The notes under the pieces: generated by a model
What the model was told of the DNA's origin: nothing
The model's input: only the letters and a program-made list of their open reading frames with translations
Database searches by the model: none
NCBI RefSeq assembly: GCF_003334765.1
Contig: NZ_QOWT01000001.1
Source of the DNA: Escherichia coli
GTDB lineage: Bacteria; Pseudomonadota; Gammaproteobacteria; Enterobacterales; Enterobacteriaceae
DNA: 64,000 bases
Direction: 5' to 3' (one strand)
Shown here: positions 17,042 through 19,385 of the stretch, one piece after another
How the letters are laid out: each line of letters starts with the position of its first letter
Numbering within the stretch: the stretch's first letter is position 1
Position numbers and translations under genes: made by a program

Positions 17042-18022
17042 ATGCTGACACTTGCCCGCCAACAACAGCGACAAAATATTCGCTGGTTATTATGCCTGTC
17101 AGTTTTGATGCTGCTGGCGCTTCTCTTAAGCCTTTGCGCCGGTGAACAATGGATCTCGCCAGGTGACTGGTTTACTCCTCGTGGCGAACTGTTCGTCTGG
17201 CAAATTCGCCTGCCACGTACGCTGGCTGTATTGCTGGTTGGTGCGGCGCTGGCTATATCCGGCGCTGTAATGCAGGCGTTGTTTGAAAATCCTCTGGCAG
17301 AACCTGGACTACTTGGCGTCTCTAACGGCGCAGGCGTGGGGCTTATCGCCGCGGTATTGCTTGGGCAAGGGCAACTCCCCAACTGGGCGCTAGGGCTGTG
17401 TGCGATTGCTGGCGCGCTTATCATCACTTTAATACTCTTACGTTTCGCCCGTCGTCATCTTTCGACCAGTCGGTTATTGCTGGCTGGCGTTGCATTAGGG
17501 ATTATCTGTAGCGCACTAATGACGTGGGCTATCTACTTTTCCACCTCAGTTGATTTGCGTCAGCTGATGTACTGGATGATGGGCGGTTTTGGCGGCGTAG
17601 ACTGGCGGCAAAGCTGGCTGATGCTGGCATTGATCCCCGTGTTGTTGTGGATCTGTTGTCAGTCCAGGCCGATGAATATGTTAGCACTTGGCGAGATCTC
17701 GGCGCGGCAACTGGGTTTACCCCTGTGGTTCTGGCGCAATGTGCTGGTGGCAGCGACCGGCTGGATGGTTGGCGTCAGTGTGGCGCTGGCGGGTGCTATC
17801 GGCTTTATTGGTCTGGTGATCCCCCATATTCTCCGGTTGTGTGGTTTAACCGATCATCGCGTATTACTTCCCGGCTGCGCGCTGGCAGGGGCGAGCGCAT
17901 TGCTGCTGGCCGATATTGTAGCGCGCCTGGCATTAGCTGCCGCAGAGCTGCCTATTGGCGTGGTCACCGCAACGTTAGGTGCGCCGGTGTTTATCTGGTT
18001 ATTGTTAAAAGCAGGACGTTAG
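17042..18022 (+). CDS. btuC: Vitamin B12 ABC transporter permease
   Basis: 326-aa polytopic membrane ORF; FecCD-family. Confidence 0.95.
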
Positions 18023-18084
18023 CCGCAAAAAGACGGTCTATGATTAAAAGCTAAGATTTTTACTGACCACACCCAGGAGAAACG

Positions 18085-18636
18085 ATGCAAGATTCCATTC
18101 TGACGACCGTAGTGAAAGATATCGACGGTGAAGTGACCACGCTGGAGAAGTTCGCCGGTAATGTGCTGTTGATTGTCAATGTCGCCTCAAAGTGTGGCTT
18201 AACGCCGCAATATGAGCAGTTGGAGAATATTCAGAAAGCCTGGGTCGATCGAGGTTTTATGGTGCTGGGATTCCCGTGCAACCAGTTTCTGGAACAAGAA
18301 CCGGGCAGCGATGAAGAGATTAAAACTTACTGTACCACCACATGGGGGGTGACGTTCCCGATGTTCAGTAAGATTGAAGTTAATGGCGAAGGACGCCATC
18401 CGCTGTATCAAAAATTGATTGCCGCAGCGCCGACCGCAGTCGCGCCGGAAGAGAGCGGATTCTATGCCCGTATGGTCAGCAAAGGCCGTGCACCGCTGTA
18501 CCCGGATGATATTTTATGGAATTTTGAAAAATTCCTGGTTGGCAGGGACGGAAAAGTCATCCAGCGTTTTTCCCCGGATATGACGCCGGAAGATCCCATT
18601 GTGATGGAAAGCATTAAACTGGCGTTGGCAAAATAA
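18085..18636 (+). CDS. btuE: Glutathione-peroxidase-family thiol peroxidase
   Basis: 183-aa ORF with VASKCGLT catalytic-Cys motif. Confidence 0.95.
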
Positions 18637-19385
18637 TGTCTATTGTGATGCAGTTACAAGATGTTGCGGAATCTACCCGCCTGGGGCCGCTTTCTGGCGA
18701 GGTTCGGGCTGGGGAGATCCTGCACCTGGTGGGGCCGAATGGCGCGGGTAAGAGTACCTTACTGGCGCGAATGGCCGGAATGACCAGCGGTAAGGGAAGC
18801 ATTCAGTTCGCGGGGCAACCACTGGAAGCATGGTCCGCAACAAAACTCGCGCTGCATCGCGCCTATCTTTCACAACAGCAGACGCCGCCGTTTGCAATGC
18901 CGGTCTGGCACTACCTGACACTGCATCAGCACGATAAAACGCGTACCGAACTACTGAATGATGTCGCAGGGGCGCTGGCTCTTGATGACAAACTCGGACG
19001 TAGCACCAATCAACTTTCCGGCGGTGAATGGCAACGCGTACGTCTTGCTGCGGTGGTGTTGCAAATCACACCACAAGCCAATCCCGCAGGCCAATTGCTG
19101 CTTCTTGATGAGCCGATGAACAGTCTTGATGTTGCGCAACAAAGTGCGTTAGACAAAATTCTGAGCGCGCTGTGTCAGCAAGGACTGGCGATTGTGATGA
19201 GCAGTCACGATCTCAACCACACATTGCGTCATGCGCATCGGGCGTGGTTGCTAAAAGGTGGAAAAATGCTGGCCAGTGGACGCAGGGAAGAGGTGCTCAC
19301 GCCGCCAAATCTGGCGCAGGCCTATGGGATGAATTTTCGCCGTCTGGATATCGAAGGTCACAGAATGCTGATTTCGACCATCTGA
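18636..19385 (+). CDS. btuD: Vitamin B12 ABC transporter ATPase
   Basis: 249-aa ORF; Walker [10 protein letters not shown], signature LSGGEWQR; start overlaps btuE stop (TAATG). Confidence 0.95.

Follow-up and report, generated by a model that had tools for sequence, protein, structure and literature searches.

A conserved stop/start overlap between btuE and btuD in the btuCED operon of Escherichia coli, and the probable translational coupling of the two genes

In Escherichia coli, btuD, the gene for the ATPase of the vitamin B12 ATP-binding cassette (ABC) transporter, begins on the last base of the stop codon of btuE, a peroxidase gene that stands between it and the permease gene btuC. The region studied here, positions 17042 to 19385 of a 64,000-nucleotide (nt) stretch of the E. 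coli contig NZ_QOWT01000001.1 (this whole stretch is "the window" below, and coordinates are positions in it unless a locus of another genome is named), is the canonical btuCED operon, and the identity of the locus is certain. We think that the best explanation of the locus as a whole, with a probability of roughly 0.6, is this canonical operon with btuE and btuD joined by termination and reinitiation of translation, and with a past insertion of btuE at the origin of the present arrangement. Judging from the sequence, the best-supported mechanism at the junction is probably that btuD is translated mainly by the ribosomes that terminate on btuE.

The btuE/btuD junction and its conservation

The three genes lie on the plus strand. 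The permease gene btuC (17042-18022, 326 amino acids (aa), with a TAG stop) is followed by a spacer of 62 nt (18023-18084), by btuE (18085-18636), which encodes a thioredoxin/glutathione peroxidase of 183 aa, and by btuD (18636-19385), which encodes the ATPase of 249 aa; these limits are those of the list of open reading frames (ORFs) and of the RefSeq annotation. A first-pass annotation of this DNA had proposed a 1-nt stop/start overlap, written TAATG, at 18634-18638, and this is correct to the base: the TAA stop occupies 18634-18636 and the ATG start 18636-18638, with the base at 18636 shared.

An overlap of -1 is in itself a routine and unremarkable type of junction. There are 83 copies of TAATG on the plus strand of the window, so that the motif alone is not beyond chance, and 6 of the 47 pairs of same-strand neighbours in the window overlap, with 11 of the 47 at spacings of -8 to +10 nt. 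Among same-strand pairs of E. coli genes the commonest spacing is -4, followed by -1 and then by -8 (PMC10666635; reviewed in PMC12548453), and 707 of 2,987 such pairs are spaced at -8 to +6 (PMC10666635).

What does go beyond chance is the conservation of the junction, which is at -1 in 75 of 81 loci while the adjacent spacer varies about 100-fold. These loci come from a scan with BtuD, limited to one genome per species. It gave 80 loci from Enterobacteriaceae, with identities of 64-99%, and inclusion of the E. coli reference locus brings the number of junctions to 81. In all 80 scanned loci btuE lies directly upstream of btuD. The -1 overlap is mostly TAATG (69 loci), sometimes TAGTG (4 loci, where a single change of the shared base keeps both the stop and the start) or TGATG (2 loci), and five of the other six junctions fall within -4 to +5 (ATGA at -4 in two loci, +1 in two and +5 in one), which makes 80 of 81 within that range. 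The remaining junction carries an apparent frameshift; in Citrobacter koseri NCTC10786 (L033, about 650-760) the beginning of btuD past TAATG is in the wrong frame and the match to BtuD begins at residue 17, so that this btuD is either a pseudogene or the product of a sequencing indel.

The btuC-btuE spacer measures from 22 to 2,679 nt in the 77 related loci in which it could be measured, and it is an insertion hot spot. Four Klebsiella/Raoultella-type loci (L075, L077, L079 and L080, at about 1900-2950) carry in it an opposite-strand gene for a lipoprotein of the MetQ/NlpA family, Enterobacter cloacae (L042, 1530-2103) carries an opposite-strand ORF of 108 aa, and a Lelliottia locus (L061, 266-2947) carries three same-strand genes, one of them manganese-catalase-like with a score under the NCBIfam cut-off. 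The order btuC-btuE-btuD is kept in the 76 related Enterobacteriaceae loci that have btuC within the fetched sequence, and btuE and btuD are adjacent in all 86 loci that contain btuE, even where opposite-strand genes split off btuC. With a spacer that is variable and invaded and a btuE-btuD pair that is unbroken, the invariant unit is therefore btuE-btuD and not btuC-btuE.

Where an opposite-strand gene intervenes, btuE and btuD cannot, for that reason, use the btuC promoter. A promoter-like match lies 75 nt upstream of btuE in one of the Klebsiella/Raoultella-type loci (L075, 2846-2875). The supplement of Kim et al. 2012 (PMC3415461) has no btu entries for Klebsiella, so that the case for separate transcription of btuE-btuD in these bacteria consists of the intervening opposite-strand gene and this one promoter-like match.

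A singleton predicted protein of 348 aa (P0004), from an ENA contig of 1,985 nt, combines GSHPx and ABC_tran domains and shares 99% identity with BtuD. It looks like a BtuE-BtuD fusion, but its most likely origin is a frameshift or an assembly error at the overlap.

How translation of btuD may begin

When pairing with the anti-Shine-Dalgarno (anti-SD) sequence is computed for the 20 nt that precede each start, btuE has a duplex of -7.4 kcal/mol (from AGGAG at 18075-18079, inside the 62-nt spacer; the median of about 80 Enterobacteriaceae loci is -6.4), btuC one of -3.3 kcal/mol (median -3.3) and btuD one of -1.5 kcal/mol (median -3.15). No recognisable Shine-Dalgarno (SD) sequence is present in the 20 nt upstream of the btuD start, and among arbitrary ATGs in the window 70% pair with the anti-SD at least as well as that of btuD.

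According to the mechanism that we favour, a single mRNA beginning about 25 nt upstream of btuC would carry btuC, btuE and btuD; btuE would be translated from its own strong ribosome-binding site after the spacer, and ribosomes finishing btuE would restart on the ATG of the SD-less btuD, one base back, with the output of BtuD following the translation of btuE. The spacing of -1 nt falls within the range of -8 to +10 over which termination-reinitiation works experimentally (PMC10666635), and Huber et al. 2019 found coupling in four of the five overlapping pairs native to E. coli that they tested (PMC6728339). Indirect support comes from the missing SD of btuD, from the conservation of a tight junction next to a highly variable spacer, and from more distant relatives (see below), among which Pantoea and Dickeya have close junctions without an SD and the one lineage at +30 has a strong SD. 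A start-occluding RNA structure at the junction, which would couple the two genes through its unfolding, was considered and discarded: the RNA of 18566-18675 folds no more stably than shuffled sequence does (z = -0.70). Coupling of the unfolding type is therefore not indicated, and reinitiation is the likelier route if the genes are coupled.

Several points weigh against this mechanism. In one native pair, bioBF, whose SD is likewise weak, initiation was de novo and uncoupled (PMC6728339), and reinitiation fell in four of five E. coli pairs when the SD was removed (Huber et al. 2019, PMC6728339), so that the missing SD of btuD could mean a low level of BtuD and not efficient coupling. The Klebsiella group carries AAGGAG upstream of btuD although the genes overlap. 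Point mutation does not easily abolish a stop/start overlap, because the stop and the start are each selected in their own right, and part of its conservation may therefore be uninformative as to coupling. The A-rich, unstructured junction could also allow initiation de novo in an SD-independent manner. Our literature search found no experiment on the btuE-btuD pair, the primary papers of 1986 and 1989, Li 2014 and Schmidt 2016 being outside its reach. The partner of BtuD is BtuC, with which it assembles 2:2, and not BtuE, the PDB entries of BtuCD being without BtuE, and the two genes thus do not encode partners in a complex; this does not exclude coupling, because the same is true of 69.6% of E. 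coli pairs at -8 to +10 (PMC10666635).

The alternative that survives best holds that the overlap is a mere by-product of gene packing, and that free 30S subunits start btuD de novo at the A-rich, unstructured AAAAUAAUG, independently of btuE. It can call on the frequency of -1 and -4 overlaps in the window and in E. coli at large (6 of 47 and 707 of 2,987 pairs, as given above), on the lack of any significant local structure that would need unfolding (the z of -0.70), on the precedent of bioBF, where initiation is de novo although the genes overlap and the SD is weak (PMC6728339), and on the roughly 70% of closely spaced pairs that encode no complex partners (PMC10666635). We nevertheless consider it unlikely. 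The SD pairing of btuD is matched or beaten by 70% of arbitrary ATGs in the window, its junction with btuE has remained close in three enterobacterial families while the btuC-btuE spacer beside it varied about 100-fold and took in whole genes, and a strong SD arises exactly where the spacer before btuD has widened to +30 (see below).

It seems to us quite improbable that BtuE serves the transporter (for example by shielding cobalamin or BtuCD from peroxides) and that coupling sets a functional ratio of BtuE to BtuD. The unseparated state of btuE and btuD in all 86 btuE-containing loci, and the persistence of the pair where opposite-strand genes split off btuC, would agree with such a role, but this linkage is equally explained by a dependence of btuD on the ribosomes of btuE; moreover, Vibrionaceae run btuC-btuD without btuE, and the BtuCD-F structures among the PDB matches lack BtuE. 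Transport by BtuCD-F in vitro is also said to work without BtuE, in work by Borths et al. from 2005, and transport of B12 reportedly does not require btuE, if one follows the title of a paper by Rioux and Kadner from 1989. BtuE is a cytoplasmic enzyme that detoxifies peroxide and is not needed for B12 transport; the btuE-btuD linkage therefore concerns expression and does not speak for a shared biochemical function.

We reject as least probable of all the idea that btuD truly starts at the in-frame ATG of codon 5 (18648-18650) and that the annotated overlap is not a functional start. This ATG is present in 62 of 80 loci, and codon 4 is also a GTG in E. coli. The other 18 loci, however, lack the ATG, and nine offer no alternative start, ATG or GTG, within the first nine codons, whereas all intact loci have a start that coincides with the btuE stop or adjoins it. 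The NCBIfam model of BtuD, moreover, aligns from residue 1, and codon 5 is likewise without an SD.

Coupling by termination and reinitiation would have a practical side. A deletion or replacement of btuE should keep its last codons and its stop, as the in-frame scar of the Keio design does; otherwise BtuD, and with it B12 uptake, may be lost, and such a loss would amount to translational polarity.

BtuE and the history of the junction

More distant representatives of BtuD were obtained from a search of representative sequences, the search for homologous proteins having given only relatives of at least 67% identity. The order btuC-btuE-btuD is found in Pantoea (BtuD 53% identical), with a btuE/btuD spacing of 0 (TAAATG) and an SD pairing of -1.7 kcal/mol, in Dickeya (48%), with a spacing of +2 and an SD pairing of -2.5 kcal/mol, and in one lineage at 47% identity, the one in which the spacing has opened to +30 and in which a strong SD (-8.0 kcal/mol) stands before btuD. 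The tight btuE/btuD junction persists to 48% BtuD identity, across three enterobacterial families.

There is no btuE in the other representatives. In Enterovibrio calviensis (BtuD 46%), in a metagenome-assembled genome of Enterovibrio/Vibrionaceae (44%) and in Vibrio stylophorae (43%), btuC overlaps btuD directly, at -4, -7 and -8 respectively, with SD pairings of -5.6, -3.1 and -3.1 kcal/mol; the overlaps are located at 3501-3504 in L088 (4 nt), 317-323 in L092 (7 nt) and 3501-3508 in L093 (8 nt). A short contig at 45% identity has an untyped ORF upstream of btuD, at -4 and with an SD pairing of -5.6 kcal/mol, and a short contig of Plesiomonas (42%) has btuC-btuD at +105, with -2.4 kcal/mol. 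Of the lineages that lack btuE, two, namely E. calviensis and V. stylophorae (L088 and L093), retain pheT-ihfA upstream.

Because Vibrionaceae that lack btuE have btuC overlapping btuD, this comparison suggests that btuC and btuD originally overlapped, which is what one would expect of the genes for two subunits of the same transporter, and that btuE was inserted between them within Enterobacterales, the tight btuD junction being kept; the directly overlapping btuC/btuD pair is probably the ancestral arrangement. The inserted btuE would have inherited the tight junction of btuD and would have become the ORF that feeds ribosomes to it. The complete scenario, in which btuE was inserted within Enterobacterales into overlapping btuC and btuD, took over the delivery of ribosomes to an SD-less btuD and is now inseparable from it, is put forward here tentatively, at slightly less than even odds. 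If it is true, it explains why btuC could be split off in Klebsiella/Raoultella-type and Enterobacter cloacae loci with btuE-btuD left intact; the output of the ATPase would be set by the ribosome-binding site of btuE and not by the permease gene, and any induction of btuE translation by stress would raise BtuD too. The comparative pattern would then be a small and tidy example of an inserted gene inheriting a translational-coupling junction.

As to BtuE itself, it is described in the account of the work of Arenas et al. 2010 given in PMC3018469 as a peroxidase that is independent of selenium and works with thioredoxin A or C, and the same source mentions its induction by oxidative stress and a reported protection against reactive oxygen species. 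The first-pass annotation had pointed to a catalytic cysteine in the VASKCG motif, and rightly so: the motif starts at residue 33, so that the peroxidatic cysteine is Cys37 (codon at 18193-18195), and it is kept in 86 of 86 related loci. The rest of the catalytic tetrad is also present, namely Gln67 (81/86), Trp145 (86/86) and Asn146 (86/86). The nearest solved structure is that of yeast Hyr1/Gpx3 (3CMI, E 5.6e-39), in which EEIAQFCQLNYGVTFP, the position of the resolving cysteine of Hyr1, aligns with Cys83 of BtuE; this second cysteine is kept in 85 of the 86 loci.

The name btuCED and the three polypeptides reportedly date from work by DeVeaux, Friedrich and Kadner in 1986. With the operon known from then and the enzymology of BtuE characterised, the peroxidase gene in a B12 operon is therefore an old, documented curiosity. 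The significance of the present observations is thus small: the operon, the peroxidase gene within it and the enzymology of BtuE are all already published, the feature is already known, and the -1 overlap is standard. Their added value lies in the comparative picture, with btuE and btuD inseparable and an overlapping btuC/btuD pair likely ancestral, and they open no new question.

The operon and its relation to known systems

The identities of the three genes, and the position of btuE between the permease and ATPase genes, had both been read correctly from the sequence at first pass, as is clear from the ORFs, the RefSeq annotation and the NCBIfam equivalogs. BtuC scores 574.7 bits against NF003001 (cut-off 334), BtuE 377.9 bits against NF007900 (cut-off 270) and BtuD 429.5 bits against NF002981 (cut-off 281). 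The segment 16900-19500 is 100% identical to many annotated E. coli chromosomes (that of strain ECCHD184, for example), and it finds a match in 5,426 of 5,426 complete E. coli genomes. A RefSeq record identical over the same segment has the same boundaries and the names ihfA, btuC, btuE, btuD and nlpC, with btuE described as "bifunctional thioredoxin/glutathione peroxidase"; the order btuC-btuE-btuD, on one strand and between ihfA and nlpC, is common to the ORF list and to RefSeq. Residues 1-249 of BtuD align to chain C of PDB 1L7V with the sole difference T88M, the codon at 18897-18899 encoding Met88 where the crystallised K-12 protein has Thr.

The btu transcription unit is limited upstream by the intrinsic terminator of ihfA (16954-16978, plus strand), a terminator-like hairpin with an 11-pair stem and a run of T behind it. 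A consensus scan places a promoter-like -35/-10 pair, TTTTCA-17-TAAAAT, at 16981-17009 on the same strand, and the transcription start site (TSS) table of Kim et al. 2012, after conversion of coordinates, puts a mapped start at about 17017 (promoter and start region 16981-17017); this is the main btuC TSS, with 60 reads, 25 nt before the ATG and with the same flanking sequence (PMC3415461 supplement). The same supplement lists a weak TSS of 5 reads within btuC, 572 nt upstream of btuE, and a separate TSS belonging to nlpC itself. The weak site maps to about 17513 (plus strand) and could mark a minor promoter inside btuC that serves btuE-btuD. For btuE in E. coli, an internal promoter of the sigma-70 type was considered and not retained, the consensus scan of the plus strand between btuC and btuD having found none and this 5-read TSS being the only published one; only weak terminator-like matches were found within btuC by the scan. 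Control of the operon by a known RNA element, such as a B12 riboswitch, was likewise set aside, the whole window containing no cobalamin riboswitch.

An Rfam match to the small RNA (sRNA) STnc540 lies at 16883-17041 (plus strand; 67.4 bits for a gathering score of 38). It runs from the 3' end of ihfA through the terminator of that gene and the promoter and leader of btuC, ends exactly at the btuC ATG, and may represent a transcript of the ihfA 3' untranslated region or of the btuC leader. Elsewhere in the window, the sRNAs RprA (41715-41822, minus strand) and RydB (47426-47486, plus strand) and the Phe leader of pheST (12918-13042, plus strand) stand at their expected places, and the annotation of the near-identical NZ_CP033250.1 gives about 7201-9100 (minus strand) as a pseudogene, disrupted by a frameshift, of EspL1, a type III secretion effector.

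Compared with btuCED of E. coli K-12, the operon described here has the same genes, order and boundaries, with pheT-ihfA upstream and nlpC-ydiV-selO downstream, and there is no substantive difference, the allele being a non-K-12 one. BtuE resembles the cysteine-type, thioredoxin-dependent glutathione peroxidases (yeast Hyr1/Gpx3, plant GPx5): it has the same NVASKCG peroxidatic cysteine and the same Gln, Trp and Asn of the tetrad, and a second cysteine where Hyr1 has its resolving one. Unlike the yeast and plant enzymes, it is bacterial and its gene lies inside a transporter operon.

The Vibrionaceae arrangement pheT-ihfA-btuC-btuD has the synteny seen in E. coli, with orthologous BtuC and BtuD (BtuD 43-46% identical), and there, as in E. 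coli, the start of the ATPase gene overlaps the stop of the preceding gene; it differs in having no btuE, so that the overlaps of -4, -7 and -8 join the transporter subunits directly. The btuE-btuD pair is comparable, finally, to the termination-reinitiation pairs with -1 or -4 overlaps (Huber et al. 2019, 2023; Brown & Wade 2025) in being co-directional, probably on one transcript, and spaced at -1 nt. It departs from them in two respects: most of the E. coli pairs that have been studied carry an intragenic SD that boosts reinitiation, whereas btuD has none, and the products of btuE and btuD are not subunits of one complex, unlike those of typical coupled pairs.

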